DNA of 64,000 nt. It comes from Spirochaetota bacterium. Lineage in GTDB: Bacteria > Spirochaetota > UBA4802 > UBA5550. Both the position numbers and the translations under genes were made by a program. Positions 24,797-64,000 of this stretch are shown one piece after another. The notes beneath the pieces were generated by a model. That model made no database searches and had not been told where the DNA came from. It worked only from the letters and a program-made list of their open reading frames with translations. Numbering within the stretch: position 1 is the stretch's first letter; each line of letters opens with the position of its first letter. The stretch is taken from the NCBI GenBank assembly GCA_016933025.1, contig JAFGBT010000039.1, positions 731 to 64,730 on the forward strand, written 5' to 3'.

Positions 24797-24810
24797 CCGA
24801 TAACAATCGG
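24797..24810. repeat. Palindromic motif variant (CCGATAACAATCGG) in the same intergenic region.
   Basis: One mismatch to the 14-mer. It lies 44 bp from the previous copy. Confidence 0.5.
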
Positions 24811-24925
24811 CTATGATGCTCACACTCTGCTGTTTTTGCTCATGCTATTCTTTTTTAATCATTTCAGCCAATATGAGGCGAAAAAAAGCTGCAACCCCAT
24901 ATTTTTTGTATCCTGAATATATTTT

Positions 24926-35590: not shown

Positions 35591-35615
35591 TACCGTATTG
35601 AAACGTACTCGGAAT

Positions 35616-35647
35616 AAAAAAGCCCCTTATTTAGGGGCCTTTTATTG
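35616..35647 (+). terminator. Rho-independent terminator.
   Basis: AAAAAAGCCCCTtatttAGGGGCCTTTTATT, which is a stem-loop plus a T-run. Confidence 0.55.
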
Positions 35648-35813
35648 TATTTCTGCAAAAAAAATTGGTGATAGTGTAGGAGGCCGCCTGTCTCATAAGC
35701 CCCCCTGGTCAGGATGAAAAAATTTAATACTACACAAAAAATAGCTAAACATTTGTATATATAAACCGATTATAATTATGTCACGATAATATTAATGGAA
35801 AAGGAGTTTTGTC

Positions 35814-44760: not shown

Positions 44761-46080
44761 TCAGTAGACGAACTTCCTGGCCCGGATATTGAGGATAATG
44801 CCGATGCTGATCATCGACATGAGGAGATTCGACCCGCCGTACGACACGAAACAGAGCGGGAGCCCCGTTACCGGCATGATCCCCACCGCCATCCCGATGT
44901 TGACCAGGACATGGAAAAAGAAGATCGTCGTTATCCCGCTCGCGAGCAGCGCCCCGAACTTGTCCTTGGCCTCAAAGGCGGTCTGGATGCAGCGGAATAT
45001 GATAAACCCGAAAAGGGATATAAGGACTATTCCGCCGAACAGGCCCCACGCCTCGGCCACCACCGAGAATATGAAATCCGATGTCTTCTCCGGGAGGAAC
45101 CCGAGCTGGGATTGCGAGCCCTTGAGAAACCCCTTGCCGAAGAACCCGCCGGAACCGATGGCGATCTTCGATTGTATAATGTTGTAACCCGAACCCTGGG
45201 GGTCCAGATCGGGGTTCAGAAAAACGAGGATCCGCCTCTTCTGGTAGACCTTGAAGAGATTCTGGATCAGGACAGACGCCAGGAGGCCCAGTGACAGGAT
45301 TGCGCCCGGGATATAGATCTTCCGTAAAAATTTCTTCACCGAAAAGAAATGAAACATGAACGCTGCGATCGTGATCACGAGCAGGACGCTGGAGACGATC
45401 AGGATGAGGTTCACGTCCTTGAAAAAATCGAGGATGAAATTGGAACTCTCGGCGCCGATCCACTCGCGGTAGGTCAGGATCATGGGGACAACCATCGCGA
45501 TGGCGGCGATCAGTATGATGGATACCAGATGGGAGACATCCGCGCCGCCGACAAAAAGCATCGTCAGGAGGATCGGAATGAAAATAATGGCCGTTCCGAA
45601 GTCCGGCTGATTCAGGATGATAATGATCGGAATGAACGTCAGAATCGTCGGCACGATCAGCTCGCGGAGGCGGTTGATATCGCGCTCGCGGATCTCCAGG
45701 TACTTGGCCAGTATGATGACCAGGGCCAGCTTCATGAACTCCGAGGGCTGTATCGAAAAAACGCCGAAATTGAGCCAGGCCCTGGTGTTGCGCACCGGCG
45801 TCCCGAAGATAGTCGTAATTATCAGCAGCACCAGGACTACGATATATATATGAAGGGAAAACTCCCCCAGCGCCTGGTAGTTGATGATGGTCAGACCGAT
45901 CATTAAAATCAGCCCGAAAATGAACCACAGGATCTGCTTGCGATAAAGGCCGCTGTTCATCTTGTCTATCGGGTCAAAACCGGCGCTGTAGATCATCAGA
46001 ATGCCGATGGCCACGGCAACCATAACCGCGATGACCAGGAGATAGTCCATCCTGGTTAATCCTTCTTTATTGAAAAGCAT
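44761..46080 (-). CDS. rodA: Peptidoglycan glycosyltransferase RodA (SEDS family).
   Basis: About 10 TM helices. SEDS signature blocks are present (GFDP, NLQPSEFMKL, FIFSVVAEAWG). It is the last gene of the mreBCD-mrdA-rodA cluster. Confidence 0.85.
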   Translation of the reverse strand: MLFNKEGLTRMDYLLVIAVMVAVAIGILMIYSAGFDPIDKMNSGLYRKQILWFIFGLILMIGLTIINYQALGEFSLHIYIVVLVLLIITTIFGTPVRNTRAWLNFGVFSIQPSEFMKLALVIILAKYLEIRERDINRLRELIVPTILTFIPIIIILNQPDFGTAIIFIPILLTMLFVGGADVSHLVSIILIAAIAMVVPMILTYREWIGAESSNFILDFFKDVNLILIVSSVLLVITIAAFMFHFFSVKKFLRKIYIPGAILSLGLLASVLIQNLFKVYQKRRILVFLNPDLDPQGSGYNIIQSKIAIGSGGFFGKGFLKGSQSQLGFLPEKTSDFIFSVVAEAWGLFGGIVLISLFGFIIFRCIQTAFEAKDKFGALLASGITTIFFFHVLVNIGMAVGIMPVTGLPLCFVSYGGSNLLMSMISIGIILNIRARKFVY

Positions 46081-46094
46081 ATGTCCTCGTACAA

Positions 46095-46160
46095 TTACCG
46101 ACCCCCCTCACCCCCGCCCCCTCTCCCGCAGGAAGAGGGGCGAAGAGCGCCTGAGCGGTC
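46095..46160. repeat. GC-rich hairpin repeat element, reverse orientation, in the mrdA-rodA intergenic spacer.
   Basis: Its reverse complement reads gcccctcttcctgcgggagagggggcgggggtgaggggggtcggtaattgtacg. That aligns at ~85 % with the copy at 60901-60950, flanks included. Confidence 0.65.
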
Positions 46161-46188
46161 TCATAATCAATGCCTTACAGGCTAACAC

Positions 46189-48165
46189 TTACAGTTTAAT
46201 CCCCGGAGGATTACCATATGTCTTTTTAACGGCCGCGGCATCTCTGCCAGCAACCTGCCCCGGCGCGGGAACCGCCGCCTGCTTTGCCTCCGGCTGCTTC
46301 CTTAACGGAGAGTCCTGCTTCTGCCGGGACGCGGCGGTAAAATACCCGAGCTCATGCAGCTTCGCAAAAATACGTTCGGCGATCGGGACGGCGCTCGCCG
46401 CGCCGGCAATGCCGTATTCTATCAGGATGGCAGTGGCGACCGCCGTTTCAGGAGGCCCGTCATACGGCGCGTAGCCGACGAACCAGGCGTGCTGTGAGTA
46501 CTTTTCCTGCCTGATTGAACGCGTCTGCGCCGTCCCGGTTTTTCCGGCGACCGGAACTTTTAGATAGCCGAGGCGGCCCGATGTTCCGCTAGTGACGCTG
46601 AGCCGCATCCCCTTCTTGACCGCCTGTAATGTAAGGGGGGAGAGCGGTATCTCCCGGACCTTCTCCCGATGCATGGCCGTGATAACGCGATTGTTATCGT
46701 TGGTGCGTATCTCCTTTACTAGATGGGGGCGGTAGACAATGCCGTTGTTTACCAGCGCCGAGACAAATTCGCACATTCCTATCGGCGTCACGTGCAGGAA
46801 GCCCTGCCCTATCGACATGTTAACGGTGTCACCGTCGAACCAGGGCTGACCAAACACTTTGTATTTCCATTGCCTGGACGGCACAAAGCCGGCCACCTCG
46901 CCCGGGATATCGATGCCCGATTTCTGGTTGAGGCCGAAGTCCTCGGCGTATCTCATCATGATCGTGGGGCCGGTCAGGAGCCCGAGCTGGTAGAAGTAGA
47001 CGCTGCACGACTTGGCGATCGCCCAGTGGAGGTCAACAGTCCCATGGACATCGTAATCGTAAAACACATGGTCACGGTACCCCTTCAGGACGAACTTGCC
47101 CGGACAATAATAGGTCTTATCCGGCGTCGCCTTCTCGGTCTCGAGCGCCGCAACGGCGGTGACGAGCTTGAAGGTCGACGCGGGAGGGTATTTCGACTGG
47201 ATCACCCGATCCAGGAAGGGCCTCTGCTTATCGTTTTGGAGCTTCTTAATGATGGCTGCGTTGTTTTTTGATATAATAAGGTTCGGGTCGAAATCGGGCT
47301 TGCTCAGAAGCGCGATCACCTCGCCGGTTGAGGGCTTCAGGACTATCGCGGCGCCCTTCATGCCCTTCATTGCGTCATATATGATCTTCTGAATATTGTA
47401 ATCAATGGTGAGGACCAGGTTGTTCCCGGCCACCGGACGCTGCCCGATCTCCTCCCCCTCCGTTCTCTGTCTGACATCGACAATCCGGCGGACGTACCCG
47501 TCCCGCCCGCGCAGGAGCGGATCGTACTGCTTCTCGATACCCGATTTCCCGATCTTCTGATAGTGCTTGTAGCCTTCGGATTTCAGGCGCCTGTATTCGG
47601 CATGGCTTATGCTCCCGACGTAGCCGACAGCGTGGGCGAACATCTCGCTGAAATTATAGACCCGTACCGAAGCGTCCTCCCAGTCGATATTGGGGAACTT
47701 TTTCGGATGGGAGGCGATTTTCACGATGGTGTCGAATTCAACGTCCTCTTTTAACACCACCCGCTCCCACGGGTTGCCGCTATTGATCTCATCGATTATC
47801 TCGTCTTTATCGATTTTCAGAAGACGCGACAGAAGGTCGAGGATCTCGTATAATTTTTTTTTTGATTTGAATTTTGCCGGAATGGTCGTCAGGTTAAAAG
47901 ACGCCCGGTTTGAGACGAGGACGACGTTCTTTTCGCCCTCCTTGAAGTTGCGGTCGTATACATCGCCCCGCGCCGCAGGGATGGGGATATTGCTCTCCAT
48001 ATTAATCCGCGCCCTTGCCTGGTACTCTTTCCCCTGTATCACCTGAAGGTTGAGCAGTTGAAGTATCAGGGCGGCGAATGCCACGGCGGCGACCGCCATG
48101 TAGAAATACATCCTGACCCGGAAGGCTTCCTGCAGCTTTGCCCGCAAAGACGATTGCATCAGCAT
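46189..48165 (-). CDS. mrdA: Penicillin-binding protein 2 (elongasome transpeptidase).
   Basis: An N-terminal TM helix, a PBP dimerisation domain and the transpeptidase motifs STFK, SGT-like and KTGTAQ. The Ala/Pro/Gln-rich C-terminal tail is unusual. The start is placed to abut the mreD stop. Confidence 0.85.
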   Translation of the reverse strand: MLMQSSLRAKLQEAFRVRMYFYMAVAAVAFAALILQLLNLQVIQGKEYQARARINMESNIPIPAARGDVYDRNFKEGEKNVVLVSNRASFNLTTIPAKFKSKKKLYEILDLLSRLLKIDKDEIIDEINSGNPWERVVLKEDVEFDTIVKIASHPKKFPNIDWEDASVRVYNFSEMFAHAVGYVGSISHAEYRRLKSEGYKHYQKIGKSGIEKQYDPLLRGRDGYVRRIVDVRQRTEGEEIGQRPVAGNNLVLTIDYNIQKIIYDAMKGMKGAAIVLKPSTGEVIALLSKPDFDPNLIISKNNAAIIKKLQNDKQRPFLDRVIQSKYPPASTFKLVTAVAALETEKATPDKTYYCPGKFVLKGYRDHVFYDYDVHGTVDLHWAIAKSCSVYFYQLGLLTGPTIMMRYAEDFGLNQKSGIDIPGEVAGFVPSRQWKYKVFGQPWFDGDTVNMSIGQGFLHVTPIGMCEFVSALVNNGIVYRPHLVKEIRTNDNNRVITAMHREKVREIPLSPLTLQAVKKGMRLSVTSGTSGRLGYLKVPVAGKTGTAQTRSIRQEKYSQHAWFVGYAPYDGPPETAVATAILIEYGIAGAASAVPIAERIFAKLHELGYFTAASRQKQDSPLRKQPEAKQAAVPAPGQVAGRDAAAVKKTYGNPPGIKL

Positions 48166-48166
48166 A

Positions 48167-48670
48167 TTACAGGTACCCCTCTTTCTCCAGCTCACCCTCG
48201 AAAATCTTGTCGAATATGAAAAATAGCGGCGGCGCGAGCAGGGCATTGTAAAAAGACTCGGGAAGAATTATGCTCAGGATGGAAGAAGCCGACGCCTCGT
48301 GAAACACGTAGCACATAAAAAGGGTGATAAAGCCCTTGGCCAGCGACGCCACGAACAGGAGGAGCGACGTGGTGAGTATATTGCTCTTGAAGAGTGACCT
48401 GCCGAACATTCCCACGATAAAGGCGACCGCCACCTTGGGGAAGGTGAGAAGGCCCAATGGAGAGTTCGACACCGCGTCGTGAAGCAGACCGCCGATGAAT
48501 GCCGTCACCTCCCCGTAAAAAGAACCGAAGCAGTAGGAAAGGTAAACCACCGCGATAAATATGAGATCCGGCTTGACACCCGCGATACGAAGGACGTCAA
48601 ACGAGGTGTGGCCCTGAATCAGCAGGGAAACCAGTATTATCACCCCGGTGAACACGTATGTTAGTATCAT
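48167..48670 (-). CDS. mreD: Rod shape-determining protein MreD.
   Basis: A 167-aa polytopic membrane protein, placed between mreC and mrdA. Its start overlaps the mreC stop by 4 bp. Confidence 0.7.
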   Translation of the reverse strand: MILTYVFTGVIILVSLLIQGHTSFDVLRIAGVKPDLIFIAVVYLSYCFGSFYGEVTAFIGGLLHDAVSNSPLGLLTFPKVAVAFIVGMFGRSLFKSNILTTSLLLFVASLAKGFITLFMCYVFHEASASSILSIILPESFYNALLAPPLFFIFDKIFEGELEKEGYL

Positions 48671-49536
48671 TCGTTTTTCTCTTCGTCAAATATTTCGAAC
48701 AGATCCTTGTCGATGTCCTTTTTGATCACGAAGACGTCCTCCACAAGATCATAATCGACCACCGGCTTCACCATGGCGCGCTGGTACGCGCTCGATTCCA
48801 GCGAGTAGGATTTAAGGACCGTGCCCACCACCAGCCCGGCCGGAAAGACGCCGCCCTGGCCCGAGGTGATCACCACGTCGTTGAACTTGATAAAGGCGGC
48901 GCGGCTGATGTAGTCCATCTTGCAGAGATTCGAGTTTCCCGAATAGCCGCAGAGGAGGCCCGGGAACCTGCTCTCCTGCAGCTTCACCCCGATCCTTACT
49001 GCGGGAGAGATAATCGGCGCAATGCGGGATATGCTTCCGCGCACCTCGATCACCGTACCCACGACGGCTTTCTGCCCTCCCTGGTACGCTATCACCGGCA
49101 TGTTCTCCCTTATCCCGTCCGATGCACCCTTGTTAATGATGATGGTGCGGAACCAGTTGTCCGGGTCCTTTGAGATAATGGACGATGGGATGGAGTCGTA
49201 CTCCACCCGCTCCTTCATGCCGAGAAGCTCGCGGAGCCGGTCGTTTTCCCGCCTGATCTCGCTCATCTCGTCTGTCATCGATTCGTACTGCTGGAGCTTG
49301 GCGCGGGTCTTCATCAGCTCGTCGCGCACCTCGGTGAGCTCGGTGAACCCGGCCCATATCCGCGAAATACCGCCCTGCACGCCGTTATAGGCCTTCTGGA
49401 AGGGCATGGTAACCGCGCTGATTATTCCCTCAAAAGAAAGGGTGAACGTGGTCGACTGGAGCGAGAGTGAAATGATGCAAAACAGAGTAAACGATATGAA
49501 CGCGACAACGCTTTTATTTCGTATTATAAATTCCAA
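48667..49536 (-). CDS. mreC: Rod shape-determining protein MreC.
   Basis: An N-terminal TM anchor, then a coiled coil (LQQYESMTDEMSEIRRENDRLRELL), then a beta-rich C-terminal domain with a GLVVG motif. Confidence 0.8.
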   Translation of the reverse strand: MEFIIRNKSVVAFISFTLFCIISLSLQSTTFTLSFEGIISAVTMPFQKAYNGVQGGISRIWAGFTELTEVRDELMKTRAKLQQYESMTDEMSEIRRENDRLRELLGMKERVEYDSIPSSIISKDPDNWFRTIIINKGASDGIRENMPVIAYQGGQKAVVGTVIEVRGSISRIAPIISPAVRIGVKLQESRFPGLLCGYSGNSNLCKMDYISRAAFIKFNDVVITSGQGGVFPAGLVVGTVLKSYSLESSAYQRAMVKPVVDYDLVEDVFVIKKDIDKDLFEIFDEEKNE

Positions 49537-49613
49537 TTCTGATGGTTCTCTTAGCTGCTAATTTATCGCCCGTGCGGCTAAAGCCGCAATTTTAGTGAGG
49601 CTAAAGCCTCATG

Positions 49614-50639
49614 CTATTTAAGGTTCGCCCGGTACAGGTGCTTCAGCTCCTCGAGGAATTTGCCGGCGCCCAGCACGACGCAGGTGAGCGGATTTTCGGC
49701 AAGGATAACCGGCACGCCCGTCTCCTTGCTGATGAACTTGTCGAGCCCTTTTAACAGCGAGCCGCCGCCGGTCATGACAATACCCCGCTCCACGATATCG
49801 GCGGCGAGTTCCGGCGGTGTCTTTTCCAGCGCATGCTTGATGCCGTCGAGCACCTGATCAACCGGCTCCTTGAGGGCCTTGCGCACCTCTGTAGAATCTA
49901 TCTCCAGTGTCCGGGGAAGGCCGGAAATGGCGTCCCGCCCCTTCAGCTCCATGGTTTCGATTTTTTTCTCAGGGAAGGCGTTCCCAATCCTGAACTTGAC
50001 CTCCTCTGCCATCCGCTCGCCGATGACCAGGTTGTACTGCGTCCTCATGTATTTTATTATAGCGTCGTCGAATTCGTCGCCGGCGATACGGAGGGAGTCC
50101 GCTATAACCATGCCGCCCAGCGATATAACGGCGATCTCCGTCGTCCCGCCCCCCACATCGACCACCATATGGCCCGCCGGCTCATGGATGGGGATATTGG
50201 CGCCGATGGCGGCCGCAAGGGCCTCCTCGATCAGAAATATCTCCCGTGCCCCGGCCTGCTCTGCCGATTCCCGCACCGCCCGCTTCTCCACTTCGGTGAT
50301 TCCCGACGGGACGCCAATGACGACCCGGGGCCGGACCAGGGTCTTCCTTTTATGCACTTTTGTGATGAAATACCTGATCATCTTTTCAACGGTTTCGAAG
50401 TCCGCAATAACGCCGTCTTTCATCGGGCGGATTGCGACGATGTCGCCCGGGGTCCTTCCGAGCATCCTCTTGGCCTCATGGCCGACGGCAAGGACCTTGC
50501 CGGTGCTTGTCTGCACCGCCACAACTGAAGGTTCTGACAGCACTATCCCCTGGCCCTTCACGTGGACCAGGGTGTTCGCGGTTCCGAGATCTATGCCCAT
50601 GTCGTTGGAAAACATTCCATACAGCGAATCAAGAAACAT
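49614..50639 (-). CDS. mreB: Actin-like rod shape-determining protein MreB.
   Basis: The start [25 protein letters not shown] aligns with E. coli [24 protein letters not shown]. The phosphate and adenosine motifs are present ([28 protein letters not shown]). A GAGGAG ribosome-binding site is upstream. Confidence 0.9.
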
Positions 50640-50682
50640 GAATAAACTCCTCTGATTGGTTGCGCCAAAAATATGTGATTCT

Positions 50683-50710
50683 GATAAATAAAAGCCCCCT
50701 CCGGGGGGTC
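50683..50710 (-). terminator. GC hairpin plus T-run, ~45 nt upstream of mreB. It could be the terminator of the upstream operon or an attenuator in the mreB leader.
   Basis: On the minus strand it reads CCCCCCggaGGGGGC followed by TTTTATTTAT. Confidence 0.3.
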
Positions 50711-50898
50711 TGGGGATTATGGTCAAAATCCCTGAATCGCGCGCTATAAGACATTATAATTCATTGATAACTCAGGCTTTCTACTACAATAAGTACGTTT
50801 TTTGTCAAGTGATTATCATTATTTACACGAATTATTCAATTGTTGATAAAAAAAATTCCGGACGTATGCGGCAGTATGCCGCCCGAACGGGCTCTTCA

Positions 50899-54818: not shown

Positions 54819-55292
54819 ATGATAGGAAGAAAATTCCGGGGGGATATGATGGAAACAACGCTTAATGTTCACGAAAAAGTTCTTGAAAAAATTGAGTCAG
54901 CTGCAGCTTCCGCAGGAATGGGCAGATCAACGTTGATAATCAGGCTGATTAAAATGGCAATGGATGATATTCCAAACCCCGCCCGCATGGGCTCCAACGT
55001 CAAATATCAAAAAAGGTGCAGTCCTGATGAATGGCGCCCGGTCCACCTGCAGTTGAGAATTGATGATTATGAGTATTTCCAGGATCTGAGGAGGTTGCGG
55101 AAGATGTCGATTTCATTTATTCTGGCATATTCTGTTGAAAAATTCCTTCCACAGCTTTTAGAAAAAAAAGATACCGATAACTATCGGTATCAAAATTATA
55201 TTGTCATCAGAGAAATCATTGAAAATATCATATCATGGAGATTCATATGGGGATACCCACCCAATCTTGAAAAACATCTCCAATTTTCATAG
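54819..55292 (+). CDS. Hypothetical protein with an N-terminal ribbon-helix-helix-like (CopG/Arc-like) segment. A 22-bp perfect palindrome lies inside its coding sequence.
   Basis: TLNVHEKVLEKIESAAASAGMGRSTLIIRLIKMAM has the beta-strand, helix, loop, helix pattern of an RHH DNA-binding domain. The palindrome GATACCGATAACTATCGGTATC at 55170-55191 encodes DTDNYRYQ. Confidence 0.4.
   Translation: MIGRKFRGDMMETTLNVHEKVLEKIESAAASAGMGRSTLIIRLIKMAMDDIPNPARMGSNVKYQKRCSPDEWRPVHLQLRIDDYEYFQDLRRLRKMSISFILAYSVEKFLPQLLEKKDTDNYRYQNYIVIREIIENIISWRFIWGYPPNLEKHLQFS
55170..55191. repeat. Longest copy of the palindromic motif (GATACCGATAACTATCGGTATC, 10-bp arms), inside a coding sequence.
   Basis: A perfect inverted repeat around the non-palindromic AC centre. 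Confidence 0.65.
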
Positions 55293-55300: not shown

Positions 55301-55843
55301 TCACTTTTTCCCATCATCATAGAGAATGGTAATTTTATCCAGATAGAGGTGTATAACATCGCCATGCGCGTCCCAGTCGAGCTTAAAATTCTTCAGCTTG
55401 CCCCTGACCGCGAAGAGCGCGCCGGAGCGCCACCACCCCTTCATGGGAGCATAGTTCTTATCGGCCATCTGCTTAAGGGATTCCGGGTCGATCTCGCCGT
55501 GAATGTAGAGCCAACGGCCGCTGAGAAAAATGCAGACAACGTCCTTATCGTATAGTCTTTCGGGCGAGGAGAGCGTGAAATCGCTGCCCGTGGTGATCTC
55601 TTTTCCCAGGAGCCTGATAAGCAGTCGCCTGAGCTTGCCTTCATGGTAATGCTTGCTCCCGAACAGCCCCAGGCGCCACTTTTCATACTGATTCTGGATC
55701 AGAAAAAAGTTCCGCAGCCCCTCAGGGACATCTTCCGCGCTCAATTCAGCGCCGGTCGTCAACGGCGTTTCGAAGAAGGCGGGATAACCGATAACTATCG
55801 CCCCGCAAAAAAGACCTATCATGCAGCATCGCCTTAATCTCAT
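55301..55843 (-). CDS. Secreted hypothetical protein.
   Basis: The probable start is the internal MRLRRCCMIGLFCGAIVIG signal peptide. The upstream part of the ORF-track frame is R/G-rich and overlaps the DUF3467 gene, so I treat it as non-coding. A palindromic motif copy (55788-55801) encodes AIVIGYP. Confidence 0.4.
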   Translation of the reverse strand: MRLRRCCMIGLFCGAIVIGYPAFFETPLTTGAELSAEDVPEGLRNFFLIQNQYEKWRLGLFGSKHYHEGKLRRLLIRLLGKEITTGSDFTLSSPERLYDKDVVCIFLSGRWLYIHGEIDPESLKQMADKNYAPMKGWWRSGALFAVRGKLKNFKLDWDAHGDVIHLYLDKITILYDDGKK

Positions 55844-55845
55844 GG

Positions 55846-56145
55846 CTACTGCAGCCTCCCCCCTTCCTCTCCCGGGACGCGGATATCGATAACCCCGTAG
55901 CGCTCCTCGTATTCCTTCAGGTTCTGCCCCAGGGCCATCATGAAACGCTTGACGTGAGCGGGCGTCAGGATGACCCGCGACATCAGCTTGCCGAACCCGG
56001 GAGGCGGCGCCGGGTGGACGAAGATGAAATCGAACACAAACTCGTCCGACGAGTGGCTTATGTTGGAAAAGTTCGTAAAAATCCCCATGGCGACGTTCTC
56101 GTCGACCTTCACCTCTATCTTCATGTCCTTGTCCTTCGGGTTCAT
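55846..56145 (-). CDS. DUF3467-family small protein.
   Basis: MKIEVKVDENVAMGIFTNFSNISHSSDEFVFDFIF matches the conserved DUF3467 core (…YANF..v.hs.dEF.lDF). Length ~95 aa. Confidence 0.5.
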   Translation of the reverse strand: MNPKDKDMKIEVKVDENVAMGIFTNFSNISHSSDEFVFDFIFVHPAPPPGFGKLMSRVILTPAHVKRFMMALGQNLKEYEERYGVIDIRVPGEEGGRLQ

Positions 56146-56335
56146 ATACGTCTCCTTGCAGATAAACTGTACGCGCTCTGGGCCGTATTACACGTAAACA
56201 TTCTTTTTTGAGAACAACCCGCCCGTGGCGGGCTGTCCGCTCTATCATCCCAATTGATAAAAAAATAATGGCAAAGGTGGGAAAAAATTCAATAACAATT
56301 TAGTCAGAGCGGCATTAAAAAGCACCGGAGGCGCA

Positions 56336-57088
56336 TCACCGTGTATATCTTTTCAATAATTGCACAACCCGCACCTTTTTGGCCTTCTCAGCGTAATCAA
56401 GAGGAGTCATGCCTTTCTCGTCCTTGATGGTGATGTCCGCGCCGTTCTTGAGCAACAGCTCAATTATTCTGATATTGCCGACAAAAACGGCTCTGTGAAG
56501 CGGGGTCTGTTTTTCCTTGTTTTGAATATTTACGCTGGCTCCTTTTTGCAATAAATAGCTTGTTTCCTGAAAAAGTTCACCAGAGATTGTTTTAAAAATT
56601 GGAGTATCTCCATAATCAAAATCTACAGAATCAATACATACATCGAGATCTTCAATTACAAATCTGATTATATTAAATAACCTAGAATAAACAGCAGTAA
56701 ATAACAATTGGCTATCACAACTTCTATTAACGTAAACACCTTGACTAATCAAATATAAAATTATTTTTATATTACCATTATAAATAGCATCGCTTAAACA
56801 ATGTCTATTTTCATTTTCTGTATCAATCCTTGCTCCATTTATAATAAGCAATTTAACGATTTCAAGGCTGCTACTTTTTATAGCACCATTTAAAGGATAT
56901 TCGTCATGTGATAAAAATTGCTTTTTATAATTAACATCAACCCCTTGATTAATCAATAATAATACTCTTTGATACTCTCCTTTCATAGATGCCTGGTACA
57001 ACTGATCACCCAAATCTTCAACTATATTTGTTGTTGCACAACCAGACGAGAAAATCAATAATATTAAAAATATAATTATAATTCTCAT
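56336..57088 (-). CDS. Ankyrin-repeat lipoprotein. It is the probable cognate immunity protein of the upstream RHS toxin.
   Basis: Signal peptide with lipobox (LIFSSGCATT). At least 4-5 ANK repeats (…TPLHRAVFVGNIRIIELLLKNGADITIKDEKGMTPLDYA…). The start ATG overlaps the RHS stop as ATGA. GC content is very low compared with the rest of the window. Confidence 0.7.
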   Translation of the reverse strand: MRIIIIFLILLIFSSGCATTNIVEDLGDQLYQASMKGEYQRVLLLINQGVDVNYKKQFLSHDEYPLNGAIKSSSLEIVKLLIINGARIDTENENRHCLSDAIYNGNIKIILYLISQGVYVNRSCDSQLLFTAVYSRLFNIIRFVIEDLDVCIDSVDFDYGDTPIFKTISGELFQETSYLLQKGASVNIQNKEKQTPLHRAVFVGNIRIIELLLKNGADITIKDEKGMTPLDYAEKAKKVRVVQLLKRYTR

Positions 57089-60000
57089 TTATCTTTTGAC
57101 CTATTATATTCTTCTCTTACTTTACTTCTGTCATAAGGTTTTACACCCGGTATCAACTTACCATTAATATCATACATTTTCTGATTTTCAAATATCTGAT
57201 CTGGTAATGCTAAAAATGATTTACCAAGTTTAGCATTCTTGTCATCCTCATACGCCCAGGCGATAACCTCGGTACATACCATTTTATTATCGCCATCCTT
57301 AAACTTCCCTAAATTTCTCTTCCAGTTTTTACTATTGGTGAGCAAACTCCATGCGCCGCCGACCGCTCCAAGAAGCCCCTTCATGTCATATTCAAAATTG
57401 TCTTCTTTCATTGCCTTATCTAGCTTATTGATAGCATTCTTTCCTTCCTCTACCGTACCAACCCTGAAAAATCTATACTGGTCTATAGTTTCATATTTAT
57501 TATATTTCGTCCATTTTTCTTTTTTTGGATCCCATTCCATGCTTCCTTCCTTGCTAATAATCCTTTCCACGATTTTATCACCCTGGATATCAGTAACCAT
57601 CACTCCGACGACTTGGCCTTTATACTTAAACGACTGTTGCACCATTGCTGAATGGCCGAGCCTGCAACTGGTCTGCGAAAGTATCCTGTTTGATACTTCC
57701 GCGCCAAGCTTCGCTACAACACCCGCCTTTTCAGCCATTATCTGATCTTTAGGGCTTTCGGCCCGCATCATAAAATCCCCGATCCTCGCCTCCTCCATGC
57801 CTATCTCAACATGCCCGGTCGGGTCCTTGTACATTATCGGGTTGTTGGAGCAGTACGCGTACCGGTTCCAGGCCTGTGTGTTCGTCTCGCTCGATATAAC
57901 GGTGTCGGCCGTCACAAAACGCGCGATGTCCGGGTCGTAGTGGCGCGCGTTATAGAAGTAGTACCCGGTCTCCCGGTCCAGCTCCTGGCTGTTGTACTTG
58001 GGCGCGTGGCCCCGGTCGCCCTCGGTGATCCATGTCCCGCCGAAGGGGAGGTACTCGTTCTGCGACACGATCATCCCCGCATGGTCGAGCGTGACGGTGA
58101 CGCTGTCGACCTGGTCCGTCAGGTAGTGGAACGGCCTCCCGCCGGGAGCGACCGCGGCAATCCTCACGCCGTTCAGGTATATATGGCTGACCCGCATAGA
58201 GGACCCTGGTATTGGACGGCCGTCAATATCTTTTTGTGTCTCCAGGGTGAGGTACATGGAGGGCGATATCGTCTCCACGCTCCGGGCCTCGCTGCCGGCC
58301 GGCCTCGCGGAGACCTTGCGCACCCTGAACCCCTGTTCGTCGTAATCGTACCGGCCGAGCTCCTCGCCGGTGTCCGGGTCGGTCGCCAGGCGGATGCGGT
58401 TCAGGGAATCGTACGCCATCCGCTTTGCCATGTTTTTCTCCCGGTCGCGCTGGTATGTCATGTTCCCGGCCGCGTCGTATTCCATCTCGTAGCGTCCGGG
58501 GAGCCGCGCCGTGCCTATGGCGGTCGCTGCATGGTTGGCGTACGTGTACTCCCACCGGTCGTCGACCGCGCCGGTCTCACTATCATACACCGTCCTGGCC
58601 GTGAGATTGCCGCCGGGCGAATACTCATACCCGATTTCAAATTTCTTTGATATAACGGCGCCTGTATCCGGCGCTTCTGCAATCCCCGGATTTAAATCCG
58701 GGGATTGCAGAAGCGTTTTATTATAATCACCCCGCGCGTGCGCCAGCCGGTTCAGGCCGTCATACTCGTAATCGTAGCGAATGAGCCCCTCGCACGCCCC
58801 TTCGGCGTCGACGTTCGGGGCGTTTTCGATGGCGGCGATGCTGTCGTCCGGCCTGAATTCGTACGCGACGTCCTGCACCTTCCACTCCTCTCCATTGTGG
58901 CGCGCCACGGTCAGAAGGCGCTCAAGCCTCCCTCTGCGATCATACGTATAAGCGGTAACGGCATTGTTGCCGCGGCTCATTTCTATCATGCGCCCGAACT
59001 CGTTGTAGCGGACATTCTTCACGATATCCAGCGTCTCGCCGCCATTGTCGGCCGTGATTGATGTCACGCCCATGGCGCAGCGGCCGTACGAGACGGCCAT
59101 GCCTTTTCTCGCGTGCGGCTCTCGCGGGTATTCGATCAATATTTTTCTTCCTAAAAGATCATATTGATATCGAGTTATATATCTCCCCTCTCCCCGTGGG
59201 AGAGTGGTCGGGGGTGAGGGTTTCATAACTCGCGTCTCCTCCTTCACCCTCCCGATTTTATCATAGCAGAATTTCTTCGCCGACACCGGATCCTCGATGT
59301 ACGCCACCCTCCCGAGTGCGTTCGCGCATCCCCTGTACGAATCGTACACGTACCTGACCGTCCCTTCGTCTCCCGGAAGTCGCTTCACGGTCATCCGGCC
59401 CAGCCGGTCGTATTCAAAGGCCGTGACGCGGCCGAGTGCGTCGGTCACGGCGGCAGGCTCGCCGAAGGCGTTGTAATCGAGGCGCGCGTATCCGAGGTCC
59501 GGGTCGCTCGATTCCGTTACCCGGCCGAAGGCGTCGTAGCGCCATGCCGCCACGTTGCTGCCGGATGTGTCCTTCACGCCGGGCGCGAACAGCGACGCGT
59601 CCACTTCCCGTAGCGAGGGGCTTAAGCCCCTCGCTACGGGAAGATCAAATTTCTTCACCCTGTTGCCCGCGATATCATACACGAACCCGATCATCGCGCT
59701 CACAAACGCGCCGGCCCCTGAGCCTGTGCCGAGCGAAGCCGAGGCATCGCCGATGCCCGAATCCCCGGCATAGAGAACGAGCCCCCGTCCGTTCCTGACG
59801 ACCCGCTTGGACCTTTCGAGGCTGTTGGTTTCAATAACTTCCCATGGATCATGGTAGACAAACGACGTCGACGCCTCCGGCTCGCCGTCATACGCCGGGG
59901 GGAGGGTGATTTTTGACGGGCGTCCGGACCCGTCATACTCTGTCACGGTCGGGTTCTTCTCACGGAGGTGGGGGACGAACCGCCCGATCTCGTCATCGGC

Positions 60001-63000
60001 CGCCCAATCCGGCTGGCTGCGCCGCGTTACGCGGCCAACCCGGTCGTAGGTTACCATGCCCGTCTTGATGTACCGCCTCCCCGGCTCGCCGGTCGCGCTC
60101 CGCAGCGTGTGGAGCTTGCGGCCCATGCCGTCGGCGAACACGCGCGTTTCTATCATGCCCGGCCCCATGCCGAGGGCGCCCGAAGCGCCCGTGTACTGCC
60201 GCACTATGCCGCTCAGGGGGAACGCGTCCGAATAGGCGTACTCGTTCAGGGTCTCTGTCCCGGCATCGGTATCGGCCCGCTCGCGCGCCAGCCGGCCCAG
60301 TCCGTCGTACTCGAAATAGGCGCTGTTGCCGTTCGGGTCGGTCTTCTTCACCGGCGCGCCGAAAGCCGGCCCATACCCGATCTCATATACTGTGGAAAAA
60401 ATTACCGCGTCGCCAAGAGCCCGCTCCTCCACGACGAACTGACGGAGCTCCCCGTCGTAGGCCTTCTCCGCGATCCGTGCCGGGCTCCCGCTCGCGTTGG
60501 TCTCCCGCACCCTGTTGCCGCACCCGTCATAATAGTATTCAATTATTTTATCGGACACGGGAGCAAGCCCCGATCCGGTGTACGACACGAGCTCGCGAAC
60601 GACGTTTCCCCGTTCGTCGTACTCGTATGATACCGTTGTCTCATGGTCCGTGCCGGCGAGGTTCTTCCGGTACGCGGCCCTCATCTCGTTCGTGGCCTGG
60701 ATGTTTTCGAACCGGGTACTTGTCGATGCGGTCACCGGCGCGTGGGCCGCGTCCGAGTAGTGGTCGGTCACGCTCTCGGACGCGCCGGTCATCTCGTACT
60801 TCCCGGAAACAAGCTCGATGCTCGAGGTACGGGTCTCCACGAGTACGCCACGGGCGTACCTGCGCGTTTCAGTAGGCTCTACAAGATAACTGCACGCCGT
60901 CCCCCCCTCTCCCTGCGGGAGAGGGGCCGGAGGTGAGGGCTCGATTACCCGCACGGTGTAGTCATGTTCACTCCTTTCATACTCGACATGGTCAGACCCT
61001 ATCCGCCTCGTCTCCCTGACCGCGCCGCCAAGGGCCCGGTTCATCCTGAAGTCGTCGTACGGCATCGCATGATAGCGGCTCACGGTCTTCGCGCCGTACG
61101 CGTCCGTGACCGTAAACTCGCCGAAGCCGAAGCAGTCGCTCTCGCGGACGCCGTTCACAAAGGCCGAAAAGGAAGAGCCGTTTTTGTATCCGTACCGGGC
61201 GACCACGCTGCGGCCGAGGCCGTCGGCGACCTCCAGCCGCGAGCAGACGCGGTAGTTCATCGGGAGGTCCGGCACGCCGTCCCCGCCCGTGTTGTCAAAA
61301 CCGGACGAGTTGACGTACTCCATCGCGTACGATCCGCCGATACCGTTCTTCACGCCGGTAAGGAGGTCGGGCACGGCCCCCTGGGTCAGGGCGAAATACC
61401 AGCTCCGCTCTTTCAGGTGGAAAAAGCCGATATCGGTCTTGCCGTCGCCGTTGTAGTCGCCCTGGAGCCACGCGAAGGGATAGACCTTCCTCATTAAATC
61501 CGGACGGTCGAACACGATCCCGGGCGCCATCTCCTCCAGGCGGAAGCTCCCGTCATCCAGCACGACCCGCTTCGCGGCCGCACCGTCGAAGACGACCGGC
61601 CTCCCCTCATGGTCGAAGTCCCCGGTGAACGAAACCTGCTCCGCCATGACATAGTCCCGCGAGAACGACACGCGGCCGCCCTCTATCAGGAGCCGATGGA
61701 AGCATACCGGGCCGCCGTCCGCGGCGGCGTAGACGAATTCAGTCGAAGACCCGCGGGCGGCAGCGACGTGCCCCAGGAATCCTTCATTATAGAAGCGGGG
61801 GGCGCCCGATAGCGCTTCGAACGATACGCCGTCCCCGCCCGGCGTTATCCGTCCCCGGTACCAGCGGTGCGCCTCCGACGAGAAGTCGACCGCGAGCAGC
61901 GAGGCGCTCCCCTCGCCCCCGAACACGCAGGAGAGCACCCTGAGTCCCGCGCGGCTCCGCGCCTCCCGGAAAAATTCGGCATCGAGCGCGCCGGATACGG
62001 CCAGCCGCCGCGCGGCGCCATCCTTATCGAACAGGACGAAACCGGGCTCCTCAGATCGGTCGTCGAGCACCAGCAGGTATGAATCCGGGTCGTATTCCGC
62101 GAAGCGGCCGGCCCAGTAGAGGCTCATCCCGATGTCGAAATCGGACACCGCGCCGGAGTCAAACGCTGCGAAGGGCTCCTCGGAAAAGCCGGTCCCGGTG
62201 TGGCTGATCAGGAAAAAACGGTGCTCCGTACCGCCGATGACCGACCCCTCAGGCCGGTAGTAGAGGATGCCGTCCCTTCCGCGCCAGGGCCCCGGCCTCC
62301 CCCCGAACAGGACGCGGGCGCCGTCCGCCTCCATGCCCGGGACATCGAGAGCCGGAACCGGATCGGCGCTCCCCTCTTTCAGGTAAAACCGCCGCTCAGC
62401 CCGGTTGTATATGAGCAGCTCAGTCCCTTCGACTCCGCTCAGGGCAGGTTCTTCGGCGGAGCTTATCCCGAGTCCCTCGCCTGCGCTCGGGATAAACTCC
62501 GTCGAGGTGCTCTCCGGCGTGAACCGGCCGGCGAAGACCCGCTCGCCCCGGCCCTCGTGGCTGTTGCCGTCGTACCGGAACGCGACAACCGTCGTGACAC
62601 CATCGCCGGGCGCCACGGCCCTGCCGTCCGCCATCACGACCTCATCGCGCGGCAGGGGCGCGGCAAGGATGCGCGCCGGGTTGGGGCAGTCGCGCAGGTT
62701 CGTGTAGGCCCGGTAGCGGAAGCCGTCCGGCTCGGCCTCGCCGATCCAGAAGTTTCCGTCAGAGGCGGAGTAGAAGCCGATGTCGGTCCTGCCGTCTCCG
62801 TTGAAGTCACCCTGGAGCCAGCGCGTGACATCCCTGAACTTCGGCGCGCGCGAGAACTTTCGGAAGGATATGCGCCGGTCGCCGGTCTCGCCGATCCACC
62901 ATTCGCCGCTGTCCCGGTCGAACATGAGGAAATCGGAGAGGCCGTCTCCGTTGAAGTCACCGGAGAACCGGTCGTTCGCGAAGAGCGCCCGCTCCGGCGC

Positions 63001-63993
63001 GCTGAACCCGCCGTACCGGTACCAGTCCAGCGTGAAGCAGGCTGTCATGCCGAGCGTAGTCGAGGCATCGACACGCCGGTTCTCGCCCACCAGCCAGGCG
63101 CCGCTCCGGGAGTCGTAGAGAGAGACGTCGGTCCTGCCGTCGCCGTTGTAGTCGCCGCAGATGAAGTGCACGCGCTCCCGGTGCCGCCCCTGCGGGCCCG
63201 TGTCCGATGTCGCGTCCGAGTTCAGCGAGGAGTCGGGGTCATAATCGTCACGGAAGAGGTTTTTGAAATGCCGCGGCAGATCGATGAACTCGAACGAGCC
63301 GCCCCCGTTCTTCATGAAGGTCCAGCGGCCGGCCGGCTCGTGGAAGAGGAGAACGTCCGACAGGGCGTTGCCGTCGAAGTCGCCGGTGAACCATTCGCAC
63401 GCGGCCGGGTCGAGGCCCGCGCCGTATTTCCCGTAGACCCGGAAGTCGAAACAGATGCCGTTATGCTCCGCGACCCAGAGCTCCCGCGTCTCCGGAAGAT
63501 AGAAAGGGATGTCGCTCCGGCCGTCCCCGTTGTAGTCGCCGGTGGCGCCCCCCTTGAACCAGCAGATGCGGCCGCCGCCGTATCCACGGAAGCGCCTGCC
63601 GTAGATCTTCGCGGCATACCCGCCGCCGGCCCCCTCGACTCCGCTCGGGATGGCCTCTGCCGCCTTCCACTCGCCGGTCTCCGGGTTGAAAAAGGCCATG
63701 TCGGACAGGCCGTCGCCGTTGAAGTCTCCCTCGAAATACCGTACGTCGTCAGGTTCCTCCCCCGCATCGCCCGCAAATGGATTGGCCGCGTTTTGCCAGA
63801 GAAAATAGTGCTCGGCCTCCCGGTATTCGAACGCGGGCCGGGTGGAATGCCTGTCCGACCGGACCGTGTCGAGGAGCGGCCTGCGCGAGTCCGCCGACTC
63901 GCGAAAGACCGGCTCGTACCGCCAGAGCTCGCGCTCCCCCGATCGGGAGTCCCATCCGACGCAAACGGCTTCCAGGAGCCTGTCCATGCGCAT
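57085..63993 (-). CDS. RHS/YD-repeat polymorphic toxin. It has an N-terminal FG-GAP-like repeat region, a central YD-repeat shell, an RHS core ending …NPIMYKDPTGH, and a ~330-aa AT-rich C-terminal toxin domain. The N-terminus may run past the window edge.
   Basis: At least seven GD(F/Y)NGDG(R/L)(S/T)D…W repeats of FG-GAP type. More than twelve YD repeats (YEYDERGNV, YYYDGCGNR, YEYDGLGRL, FEYDRLGRM, YTYDRRGRL…). The core end reads ARHYDPDIARFVTADTV…NRYAYCSNNPIMYKDPTGH. The C-terminal domain matches no motif I know, but has candidate Cys/His residues (TSCRLGH, KMVCTEV). The frame is still open at position 64000. Confidence 0.85.
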   Translation of the reverse strand: MRMDRLLEAVCVGWDSRSGERELWRYEPVFRESADSRRPLLDTVRSDRHSTRPAFEYREAEHYFLWQNAANPFAGDAGEEPDDVRYFEGDFNGDGLSDMAFFNPETGEWKAAEAIPSGVEGAGGGYAAKIYGRRFRGYGGGRICWFKGGATGDYNGDGRSDIPFYLPETRELWVAEHNGICFDFRVYGKYGAGLDPAACEWFTGDFDGNALSDVLLFHEPAGRWTFMKNGGGSFEFIDLPRHFKNLFRDDYDPDSSLNSDATSDTGPQGRHRERVHFICGDYNGDGRTDVSLYDSRSGAWLVGENRRVDASTTLGMTACFTLDWYRYGGFSAPERALFANDRFSGDFNGDGLSDFLMFDRDSGEWWIGETGDRRISFRKFSRAPKFRDVTRWLQGDFNGDGRTDIGFYSASDGNFWIGEAEPDGFRYRAYTNLRDCPNPARILAAPLPRDEVVMADGRAVAPGDGVTTVVAFRYDGNSHEGRGERVFAGRFTPESTSTEFIPSAGEGLGISSAEEPALSGVEGTELLIYNRAERRFYLKEGSADPVPALDVPGMEADGARVLFGGRPGPWRGRDGILYYRPEGSVIGGTEHRFFLISHTGTGFSEEPFAAFDSGAVSDFDIGMSLYWAGRFAEYDPDSYLLVLDDRSEEPGFVLFDKDGAARRLAVSGALDAEFFREARSRAGLRVLSCVFGGEGSASLLAVDFSSEAHRWYRGRITPGGDGVSFEALSGAPRFYNEGFLGHVAAARGSSTEFVYAAADGGPVCFHRLLIEGGRVSFSRDYVMAEQVSFTGDFDHEGRPVVFDGAAAKRVVLDDGSFRLEEMAPGIVFDRPDLMRKVYPFAWLQGDYNGDGKTDIGFFHLKERSWYFALTQGAVPDLLTGVKNGIGGSYAMEYVNSSGFDNTGGDGVPDLPMNYRVCSRLEVADGLGRSVVARYGYKNGSSFSAFVNGVRESDCFGFGEFTVTDAYGAKTVSRYHAMPYDDFRMNRALGGAVRETRRIGSDHVEYERSEHDYTVRVIEPSPPAPLPQGEGGTACSYLVEPTETRRYARGVLVETRTSSIELVSGKYEMTGASESVTDHYSDAAHAPVTASTSTRFENIQATNEMRAAYRKNLAGTDHETTVSYEYDERGNVVRELVSYTGSGLAPVSDKIIEYYYDGCGNRVRETNASGSPARIAEKAYDGELRQFVVEERALGDAVIFSTVYEIGYGPAFGAPVKKTDPNGNSAYFEYDGLGRLARERADTDAGTETLNEYAYSDAFPLSGIVRQYTGASGALGMGPGMIETRVFADGMGRKLHTLRSATGEPGRRYIKTGMVTYDRVGRVTRRSQPDWAADDEIGRFVPHLREKNPTVTEYDGSGRPSKITLPPAYDGEPEASTSFVYHDPWEVIETNSLERSKRVVRNGRGLVLYAGDSGIGDASASLGTGSGAGAFVSAMIGFVYDIAGNRVKKFDLPVARGLSPSLREVDASLFAPGVKDTSGSNVAAWRYDAFGRVTESSDPDLGYARLDYNAFGEPAAVTDALGRVTAFEYDRLGRMTVKRLPGDEGTVRYVYDSYRGCANALGRVAYIEDPVSAKKFCYDKIGRVKEETRVMKPSPPTTLPRGEGRYITRYQYDLLGRKILIEYPREPHARKGMAVSYGRCAMGVTSITADNGGETLDIVKNVRYNEFGRMIEMSRGNNAVTAYTYDRRGRLERLLTVARHNGEEWKVQDVAYEFRPDDSIAAIENAPNVDAEGACEGLIRYDYEYDGLNRLAHARGDYNKTLLQSPDLNPGIAEAPDTGAVISKKFEIGYEYSPGGNLTARTVYDSETGAVDDRWEYTYANHAATAIGTARLPGRYEMEYDAAGNMTYQRDREKNMAKRMAYDSLNRIRLATDPDTGEELGRYDYDEQGFRVRKVSARPAGSEARSVETISPSMYLTLETQKDIDGRPIPGSSMRVSHIYLNGVRIAAVAPGGRPFHYLTDQVDSVTVTLDHAGMIVSQNEYLPFGGTWITEGDRGHAPKYNSQELDRETGYYFYNARHYDPDIARFVTADTVISSETNTQAWNRYAYCSNNPIMYKDPTGHVEIGMEEARIGDFMMRAESPKDQIMAEKAGVVAKLGAEVSNRILSQTSCRLGHSAMVQQSFKYKGQVVGVMVTDIQGDKIVERIISKEGSMEWDPKKEKWTKYNKYETIDQYRFFRVGTVEEGKNAINKLDKAMKEDNFEYDMKGLLGAVGGAWSLLTNSKNWKRNLGKFKDGDNKMVCTEVIAWAYEDDKNAKLGKSFLALPDQIFENQKMYDINGKLIPGVKPYDRSKVREEYNRSKDK
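59183..59232. repeat. GC-rich hairpin repeat element, copy A, in frame inside the RHS gene. It encodes KPSPPTTLPRGEGRY.
   Basis: tctcccctctccccgtgggagagtggtcgggggtgagggtttcataac. The stem is CCCCTCTCCCC/GGGAGAGTGG. It is ~85 % identical to the copy at 60901. Confidence 0.65.
60901..60950. repeat. GC-rich hairpin repeat element, copy B, in frame inside the RHS gene. It encodes EPSPPAPLPQGEGGT.
   Basis: ccccccctctccctgcgggagaggggccggaggtgagggctcgattaccc. The stem is a perfect 10 bp, CCCCTCTCCC-tgc-GGGAGAGGGG. Confidence 0.65.
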
Positions 63994-64000
63994 GATGAAC

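Follow-up and report, generated by a model that had tools for sequence, protein, structure and literature searches.

How does a spirochaetal Rhs protein rich in guanine and cytosine (GC) come to end in a GC-poor tail, what would that tail do, and why is it followed at once by a gene for an ankyrin-repeat protein? The locus lies in a stretch of 64,000 nucleotides (the window, whose first letter is position 1) from Spirochaetota bacterium assembly GCA_016933025.1, contig JAFGBT010000039.1, positions 731 to 64,730 of the forward strand. Our subjects are the 241-residue C-terminal tip of the Rhs protein, a putative toxin, and the 250-residue ankyrin-repeat protein encoded directly behind it, a candidate immunity protein. 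The two very probably form a cassette that was displaced onto the Rhs gene horizontally. With a probability of roughly 0.6, the tip is a circularly permuted NlpC/P60 hydrolase that acts on the cell envelope and is neutralised by the exported ankyrin protein. A displaced tip of this kind had already been proposed in an earlier sequence-only reading of the window, parts of which are revised here.

A low-GC cassette displaced onto the Rhs core

The change in base composition falls at the end of the Rhs core. While the window as a whole has a GC content of 54.6%, the core stands at 64.0%, the tip at 40.5% and the ankyrin gene at 32.4%; the GC at third codon positions (GC3) of these three parts is 0.81, 0.42 and 0.28, respectively. 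GC3 is still 0.95 in the last 20 codons of the core and has fallen to 0.40 forty codons further on, while GC inside the tip declines gradually, from about 50% beside the junction to some 30% at the 3' terminus. As a whole, the 1475-nucleotide cassette has a GC content of 36.4%, compared with a mean of 54.9% (standard deviation 4.5, minimum 44.1) in all other windows of 1475 nucleotides (z = -4.1), and it is the most extreme GC stretch in the 64 kb. The sequence-only reading had placed the end of the core at NPIMYKDPTGH near position 57800, followed by a drop from about 60% to about 35% GC that carried on through the next gene (56336-57088). The motif is indeed there, the profile shifts sharply rather than smoothly, and the next gene is low in GC. 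The value given for the tip was too low, since it is about 40% overall and graded, and the toxin domain of about 330 residues shrinks to 241.

We sought the closest Rhs relatives by scanning one genome per species with the last 500 residues of the core. The nearest are in three Leptospirales/Spirochaetota metagenome-assembled genomes (L002, L003 and L004), with cores 46-56% identical to that of the window. The host lineage can thereby be placed, even though its own species is absent from the genomes scanned. In each of the three, DNA homology to the window stops exactly at 57810/57811 (blastn), and the tips that follow DPTGH are unrelated: 213 residues of no family in L002, a Peptidase_C39_2 domain in L003 and 267 residues of no family in L004. 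The C-terminal domain is thus not one conserved in all orthologues. The downstream proteins of these relatives also differ, and each has an N-terminal signal or hydrophobic segment. Downstream of the 213-residue tip of L002 (11495-12886) is encoded an ankyrin protein that has the lipobox-like sequence LSNC and is only 26% identical to the window ankyrin protein; as it stands beside an unrelated tip, exported ankyrin partners recur in this Rhs lineage with unrelated tips.

The only close relative of the tip itself (P0001), found in a search of 5.8 billion protein clusters, lies on a 2.8-kb metagenome contig (L001) in the form of an orphan cassette. There, an in-frame stop precedes a core fragment starting at PKYNSQELD, the tip, and a 250-residue ankyrin gene that overlaps the stop codon of the tip. 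Window and L001 share 70% DNA identity, unbroken from 58002 to 56346, over the 3' core handle, the tip and nearly the whole ankyrin gene (blastn). The toxins are 62% and the ankyrin proteins 61% identical, so the divergence of the tip has been matched by that of its partner. L001 is low in GC along its whole length, which indicates that the composition is intrinsic to the cassette. A second orphan (L021, which carries the more distant relative P0002) has a stop codon and then a core fragment from the position equivalent to window 58002.

Homology that ends at DPTGH in three relatives with other tips, together with the orphan pair of L001, upholds the horizontal tip displacement onto a GC-rich Rhs shell that had been read from the sequence, and leaves us in little doubt that the window holds a displaced Rhs toxin/immunity cassette. 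A foreign low-GC cassette, composed of core handle, 241-residue tip and immunity gene, would have entered by recombination in the final ~190 bp of the Rhs core, a conserved part, with the handle as the likely recombination substrate. No direct or inverted repeats were found flanking the insertion, and no further orphan cassettes or core fragments were found elsewhere in the 64-kb window. The cassette, and with it the operon, ends at a terminator-like hairpin, where GC returns to the host level and near which the homology to L001 ends.

The two orphans come from the same metagenome (JGI 3300037308). Over 176 nucleotides (L001 1-176; L021 2439-2614), comprising a leader of about 80 nucleotides and the start of the handle, they are 91% identical; after that they diverge and differ in tip subfamily and in partner, an ankyrin protein in L001 and a multi-pass membrane protein in L021. 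The shared leader points to one of two arrangements: an orphan array in which a junction element is repeated, or a single locus with allelic tips. L003 has a second Rhs core fragment (984-1185) about 2.5 kb upstream of its main Rhs gene, a hint of another cassette or of a tandem Rhs gene. Moreover, genes for PIN-domain and helix-turn-helix proteins, in toxin-antitoxin-like order, adjoin the Rhs tip/immunity modules of L003 (6495-7504) and L021 (656-1635), with no DNA-level homology between them.

The carrier protein and its probable adversaries

The Rhs open reading frame (ORF) is still open at the window edge, so the 5' end of the gene and any upstream partner genes lie outside the window. 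Aligned with the 2817-residue homologue in L004, it begins at residue 503 of that protein, which places about 500 N-terminal residues off the window. In the part that we can see, profile searches detect FG-GAP, TcdB_toxin_midN, RHS_repeat (E = 4e-32) and YD_repeat_2x, and TIGR03696 (Rhs_assc_core, NCBIfam) spans residues 1981-2061 at full length (76/76 positions). The core domain is complete, including the YDP...RF...D segment. Rhs and TcC shells enclose their tip, and the aspartyl protease of the core cuts at a DPxG motif; by analogy, the tip of the window would be released by autocleavage at DPTGH. In the full-length L004 homologue (3887-12340) the order is lipoprotein signal, SpvB, FG-GAP, TcdB_midN, RHS repeats and core, the signal peptide and SpvB being visible only there. 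By homology with this protein, the carrier appears to be a TcB/TcC-like Rhs fusion of the Sec-exported lipoprotein type, that is, a member of the 'TcdB/TcaC' class of Zhang et al. (PMC3482391). It resembles that class in having repeats and a core, a variable and displaced tip, orphans with a core fragment and an immunity gene immediately downstream.

Such a carrier brings to mind a weapon against eukaryotes. SpvB, FG-GAP, TcdB_midN and RHS are arranged as in TcB-TcC fusions, and in a Tc-toxin-like system the tip would serve as the payload aimed at the host, with the ankyrin protein secreted along with it as an effector or chaperone; bacterial ankyrin proteins are, after all, often eukaryote-directed effectors. 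Our ankyrin protein does give partial NCBIfam matches to Legionella Ank effectors, but these are generic repeat matches. The behaviour of the cassette speaks against an anti-eukaryotic role: a downstream gene for an exported protein is tightly coupled to the tip, the two proteins show parallel divergence, orphan tip-plus-partner cassettes exist, and small membrane proteins replace the ankyrin partner in relatives of the tip (see below). Coupling, parallel divergence, orphans and partner replacement are hallmarks of interbacterial toxin/immunity systems. In addition, no TcA-like gene adjoins the L004 homologue, where the upstream neighbour is a 1159-residue ORF without a Pfam match. A host-directed weapon is therefore very unlikely in our opinion, and we continue with an interbacterial toxin.

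A rare family of tips and its exchangeable partners

A HMMER search of 1.84 billion cluster representatives yielded four real relatives of the tip, namely P0002 (E = 5e-21), P0003 (E = 7e-11), P0004, which is a 40-residue fragment, and P0005, a 630-residue Rhs protein. A further candidate (P0006), a 1357-residue repeat protein, was discarded as a spurious low-complexity match. No members were added by a profile search of the 5.8-billion set with the tip family; plasmid and phage collections contained nothing that matched the tip by tblastn, and a search of metagenome contigs with the tip profile confirmed nothing. Neither the tip alone nor the five-sequence profile matched anything at threshold in Pfam, NCBIfam, PHROGs or PDB sequences, in agreement with the earlier statement that it matches no nameable family. 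We are thus looking at a very rare warhead, with about five sequences among some 15 billion proteins, all on Rhs core ends. In all four longer relatives, the domain directly follows the end of the core (DPTGH, DPDGN or DPDGT).

In the window, the tip is paired with an ankyrin-repeat protein whose several repeats extend over residues 30-245, that is, over the mature protein. The gene adjoins the tip and travels with it: it overlaps the Rhs stop codon by ATGA, as had been noticed before, and the same pair occurs in the L001 orphan. The overlap suggests translational coupling of the two genes, and the ankyrin protein probably protects the producer. A single N-terminal hydrophobic segment ends in FSSG-C17, followed by A-T, and G-C-[AS]-T is also found in L001. 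Lipidation at this cysteine is probable, not certain. Of the lipoprotein signal and ankyrin repeats recognised in the sequence-only reading, the repeats (Ank_2) and the hydrophobic segment stand, whereas the lipobox is not canonical. The exact ankyrin protein is also encoded on Logan contig SRR13394437. A scan of metagenomes with the ankyrin pair returned no close homologue without an Rhs tip; the only matches were two generic ankyrin proteins of 29% identity, uninformative on linkage.

The partner changes with distance. Three distant relatives, with tips 29-38% identical to that of the window, are without a downstream ankyrin gene and have instead multi-pass hydrophobic proteins of 110-123 residues, overlapping or close to the tip and weakly resembling each other. 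Protection against homologous toxins would then come from immunity proteins that are unrelated to each other, a probable ankyrin lipoprotein in one branch and small multi-pass membrane proteins in the other. All candidate immunity proteins of the family are exported or membrane-embedded, from which we infer that the tip acts in the periplasm or at the outer face of the membrane. The same line of thought supports the action in the periplasm or on the envelope that the sequence-only reading had derived from the ankyrin protein.

Predicted fold and catalytic residues

The five-sequence alignment of the tip has the invariant residues G11-D12, G52-H53, D74, R116-V117-G118, Y141-D142, D174-N175-K176, V178-C179 and E181. 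C179 is the only invariant cysteine and lies 126 residues after the invariant H53; as the histidine precedes the cysteine, the tip is permuted and does not follow the Cys-first order of canonical NlpC/P60 proteins (P60/AcmB-like; Tae effectors). Its elements are a strand with GD, a strand with G/S-H, an acidic residue ending the next strand, an R-V strand with a long helix, YD, and C-S/T-E at a helix start, which is the order found in the circularly permuted NlpC/P60 enzymes of the YaeF/YiiX type. The counterparts are G24-D25, H49, E64, Y115-D116 and C128 in YiiX, and H49, E64, Y127 and C154 in BcPPNE (PMC3142127). The predicted catalytic set of the tip accordingly comprises Cys179, His53, Asp74 and Tyr141, where the correspondence of Asp74 is taken from the strand order in an AlphaFold2 (AF2) model. 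Candidate catalytic residues had previously been sought in SCRLGH and VCTEV. Both H53 and C179 of these motifs are invariant, but we rejected C49 of SCRLGH as the catalytic cysteine: it is not conserved and lies in a 19-residue insert confined to the window and L001.

Profile-profile comparison points in the same direction. We aligned the tip family (hhalign) with a YiiX profile limited to sequences of 53% or more identity to YiiX (YaeF was misaligned and left out) and obtained two collinear local alignments, DNKMVC179TE on DDRxYC128SE (P = 0.005) and GD...GH53 on GD...SH49 (P = 0.13). The score of 25.4 is above that of all 200 column-shuffled profiles (mean 13.4, standard deviation 2.3, maximum 20.1; z about 5). 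With the single YaeF sequence, the GD region alone aligned, and not significantly. Six faint single-member Pfam matches at E <= 10 include CHAP (E 0.11) and Peptidase_C92 (PF05708; E 0.24, the best single member), both sub-threshold. The tip does not reach the curated threshold of PF05708, to which the window copy shows no match whatever, and is therefore not a member of that family, but at most a distant new family in its clan. Nor does it fall into the TseH clade (Pfam DUF6695), the sister clade DUF4105 or Tox-Act1, the last judged without a direct sequence comparison.

A template-free AF2 model from the five sequences has a mean predicted local distance difference test score (pLDDT) of 60.7 and a predicted template modelling score of 0.62; residues 1-18, 50-140 and 175-190 reach a pLDDT of 76-89, and C179 lies within a helix formed by residues 174-187. 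From two sequences only, the pLDDT was 37. Canonical NlpC/P60 matches align over 57-73 residues only (the shared beta-sheet), permuted lipid-associated members over 86-130.

Several observations count against our proposal. The AF2 model rests on five sequences only, with a low mean pLDDT, a low-confidence segment between the Tyr and the Cys (residues 141-175) and 108 residues below pLDDT 50. Foldseek searches of the model against PDB and BFVD returned noise only (E >= 0.1), no Pfam or NCBIfam family matches the tip at threshold, and hhalign assigns a probability of only 7% to its alignment (P = 0.005) with the narrow YiiX profile. To these we add the lipobox FSSG|C of the ankyrin protein, non-canonical with a Ser at -3, and the fact that no secretion or TcA-like partner gene is visible in the window, from which the 5' end of the Rhs gene and everything upstream of it are missing. 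Invariant residues, moreover, are weakly informative at five sequences. Hence, the tip might have a different or new fold and activity, its likeness to NlpC/P60 having arisen spuriously from short motifs and a model of mediocre quality, and still be an Rhs toxin with an exported immunity protein. We regard this as improbable, given that five motifs are collinear, that the profile alignment pairs H53 and C179, both invariant, with the corresponding catalytic residues of YiiX at a score beyond 200/200 shuffles, and that two of the faint Pfam matches are to families of one clan. It is, in our view, likely that the tip is a distant new family within the permuted NlpC/P60 (YaeF/YiiX-like) clan of papain fold. 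The undescribed effector fold suggested before thus gives way to a new sequence family with what is most likely a known fold.

What the tip would cleave

If the tip is such an enzyme, its action could be pictured as follows. The Rhs shell would enclose the tip until autoproteolysis of the core at DPTGH releases it, and the tip would be delivered into the periplasm of a neighbouring cell. There it may cleave an acyl linkage in envelope lipids, by phospholipase A or acyl-amidase/acyltransferase chemistry, like Tox-Act1; hydrolysis of peptidoglycan peptides would be the less likely alternative. In the producer, the co-translated ankyrin protein, exported and probably lipid-anchored in the periplasm, would block the toxin by binding, comparable to Tli with Tle and Bd3460 with Bd3459. 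Assuming that the fold is right, analogy with characterised enzymes somewhat favours a lipid acyl linkage as target; a peptidoglycan peptide appears rather unlikely, and some other target still more so.

LRAT/PLAAT enzymes are phospholipases and acyltransferases. The crystal structure of YiiX shows a fatty acid bound at the active site, in a hydrophobic S1 tunnel (PMC3142127). A functional parallel is Tox-Act1, a type VI secretion system (T6SS) effector of Salmonella; this permuted NlpC/P60 phospholipase exerts its toxicity in the periplasm alone. It turns phosphatidylglycerol and phosphatidylethanolamine into lysolipids in a His- and Cys-dependent manner, its immunity protein Imm-Act1 has two transmembrane helices, and TseH of V. 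cholerae is similar to it in behaviour (PMC12994826).

The most serious competitor keeps the genetics and changes the substrate: the tip, as an NlpC/P60 amidase or endopeptidase of the Tae/Tse1 type, would attack peptidoglycan in the periplasm and cut its peptide stems, with the ankyrin lipoprotein as blocker. Precedents exist for both halves of this idea, as the periplasmic ankyrin protein Bd3460 inhibits a peptidoglycan hydrolase (PMC4686830) and Tox-NLPC/P60 domains are recorded on RHS and TcdB/TcaC toxins by Zhang et al. (PMC3482391). Other tips in this Rhs lineage look peptidase-like, that of L003 being C39-like. Yet the peptidoglycan-active NlpC/P60 proteins are canonical, with Cys first, and canonical matches align over fewer residues than the permuted, lipid-associated ones. 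The permuted members that have been characterised (LRAT/PLAAT, YiiX, Tox-Act1 and TseH) act on or bind acyl chains (PMC3142127, PMC12994826), and the multi-pass membrane partners of the distant relatives suggest that action takes place at the membrane. Taken together, we consider a cell-wall hydrolase unlikely, and a permuted hydrolase of envelope lipids remains our preferred reading.

A more specific variant is also conceivable. The tip may found a separate, YiiX-like clade of toxins whose target is neither bulk phospholipid nor peptidoglycan but the N-acyl or S-acyl linkage of envelope lipoproteins, or another lipidated molecule of the envelope, and which is neutralised either by a soluble capping ankyrin lipoprotein or by a small multi-pass membrane protein. 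Such chemistry has been proposed for YiiX and BcPPNE, and the relationship between DUF4105 and Lnb implies it as well; we regard this variant as a long shot.

Relation to known systems

With Tox-Act1 and TseH, the tip shares the permuted order with His upstream of Cys (H43 and C151 in Tox-Act1; H53 and C179 here). Tox-Act1 acts outside the cytoplasm and has an envelope-located immunity protein, and the distant relatives of our tip have multi-pass membrane partners. The two differ in that our tip is nearer to YiiX and BcPPNE by structure and profile, and in that Tox-Act1 is a T6SS effector, whereas our tip sits on a Sec/lipoprotein-type, TcB/TcC-like Rhs protein in Spirochaetota with a probable ankyrin lipoprotein as its candidate immunity protein. 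To the YaeF/YiiX enzymes (Peptidase_C92; structures 2if6 for YiiX and 3kw0 for BcPPNE) the tip is alike in its GD, His, acidic residue, (P)YD and Cys at a helix N-terminus, with His and Cys superposed by hhalign (PMC3142127). It departs from them in an identity of only ~18%, in the helical 19-residue insert before the His (window and L001) and in a long low-confidence insert between Tyr and Cys in the whole tip family. Furthermore, YiiX and YaeF do not serve as toxin tips; they are periplasmic or lipoprotein enzymes with housekeeping roles.

For the ankyrin protein, one direct precedent is Tli of Enterobacter cloacae, a lipoprotein with ankyrin repeats that neutralises the phospholipase Tle only if it reaches the periplasm and that also activates this toxin (bioRxiv 10.1101/2023.03.28.534661; PMC11470151). 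Its gene likewise lies directly downstream of the toxin gene. Tle, on the other hand, is an alpha/beta-hydrolase lipase delivered by a T6SS and not an NlpC/P60 domain on an Rhs protein, and Tli has no specific sequence relationship with the window protein beyond the repeats, as judged without a direct comparison. In Bdellovibrio, the signal-peptide ankyrin protein Bd3460 sterically blocks the peptidoglycan endopeptidase Bd3459 (PMC4686830). There too an exported ankyrin-repeat protein is encoded just downstream of the enzyme, and it guards the periplasm of the producer; unlike our tip, Bd3459 is a DD-endopeptidase (PBP4-like) of predation, with no Rhs protein and no polymorphic toxin tip involved. 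Zhang et al. list both NlpC/P60 tips and ankyrin immunity proteins among the components of polymorphic toxins, but their survey links Imm-Ank with nucleases and deaminases (AHH, GH-E) and names no immunity protein for Tox-NLPC/P60; the permuted tip family and its pairing with an ankyrin protein are absent from it (PMC3482391).

Neighbouring genes and feature coordinates

The features of the locus are collected in Table 1. Elsewhere in the window, on the reverse strand, a cell-shape cluster at 44761-50726 encodes MreB (49614-50726), a PBP2-type transpeptidase (46189-48246) and RodA/FtsW (44761-46080). Given this ordinary chromosomal context, the Rhs locus is chromosomal and not on a mobile element. 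A 315-residue ORF beyond the cassette (55301-56248, reverse strand) was considered as a further cassette gene and rejected, as it merges two genes of host-like GC. It splits into a DUF3467 gene (55846-56145) and a 180-residue gene (55301-55843), according to gene calls on an identical Logan contig and Pfam. About 1 kb past the cassette, with host-like genes in between, a 157-residue ORF on the forward strand (54819-55292) forms a second compositionally foreign patch (GC 39.7%, GC3 0.42); it matches no family, and its N-terminus gives a faint VapB-like match (E 0.059). Other short stretches of low GC (31-41% in 400-nucleotide windows) at 24400-24900, 35400-35700 and 8300-8600 are probably intergenic.

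Table 1. Positions in the window of the Rhs gene, its tip, the candidate immunity gene and associated elements.
Feature	Position	Strand	Remarks
Rhs ORF	57085..63993	-	2302 residues within the window; open at the window end (63994-64000, no in-frame stop)
Rhs shell and core	57811..63993	-	FG-GAP/VCBS repeats, TcdB_toxin_midN, RHS/YD repeats, Rhs-associated core at residues 1981-2061
3' core handle	57811..58002	-	PKYNSQELD...NPIMYKDPTGH, 64 residues; kept at the 5' end of orphan cassettes (blastn)
DPTGH motif	57811-57825	-	end of core NPIMYKDPTGH; His codon 57811-57813; presumed autoproteolytic release site
C-terminal toxin tip	57088..57810 (stop 57085-57087)	-	241 residues, Rhs residues 2062-2302; predicted permuted NlpC/P60 Cys-His hydrolase
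His53 codon	57652..57654	-	predicted catalytic His (Rhs residue 2114; motif GH-S/A-A); invariant 5/5; aligned by hhalign to YiiX His49
Asp74 codon	57589..57591	-	predicted acidic triad residue; invariant; end of the strand after the His strand; analogous to Glu64 of YiiX/BcPPNE
Tyr141-Asp142 codons	57385..57390	-	predicted counterpart of the 'PYD' Tyr; invariant; collinear with YiiX Tyr115 and BcPPNE Tyr127; low-pLDDT region
Cys179 codon	57274..57276	-	predicted nucleophile (DNKMVC-T/S-E); invariant; aligned by hhalign to YiiX Cys128; near a helix N-terminus
ATGA overlap	57085..57088	-	Rhs stop / ankyrin start, read from the sequence; L001 ankyrin start likewise overlaps the toxin stop
Candidate immunity gene	56336..57088	-	250-residue ankyrin-repeat protein with signal peptide; Ank_2 E = 1.2e-35
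Cys17 codon of ankyrin protein	57038-57040	-	conserved
Terminator-like element	56322..56334	-	short hairpin and T-run directly 3' of the ankyrin stop; weak consensus match only

Significance

Much of this system is already known. Rhs tip displacement, orphan cassettes, coupled immunity genes, NlpC/P60-type tips and ankyrin immunity proteins have all been described, and permuted NlpC/P60 toxins that target lipids have been known since 2024-2026. With genetic logic, fold class and type of immunity protein all having published precedents, the locus offers no new principle. New are the sequence family of the tip, with about five members and no curated model, nearer to YiiX than to the Tox-Act1 or TseH clades; its position on a spirochaetal TcB/TcC-like Rhs protein; its pairing with a probable ankyrin lipoprotein; and, in distant relatives, the replacement of that partner by small multi-pass membrane proteins. 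The prediction also supplies precise candidate catalytic residues (H53, D74, Y141 and C179). If our reading is correct, permuted NlpC/P60 enzymes as envelope toxins would extend to the YiiX-like branch, to Spirochaetota and to Sec-exported, TcB/TcC-like Rhs carriers. Should the target prove to be the acyl linkage of lipoproteins, this would matter especially in spirochaetes, the surfaces of which are dominated by lipoproteins.

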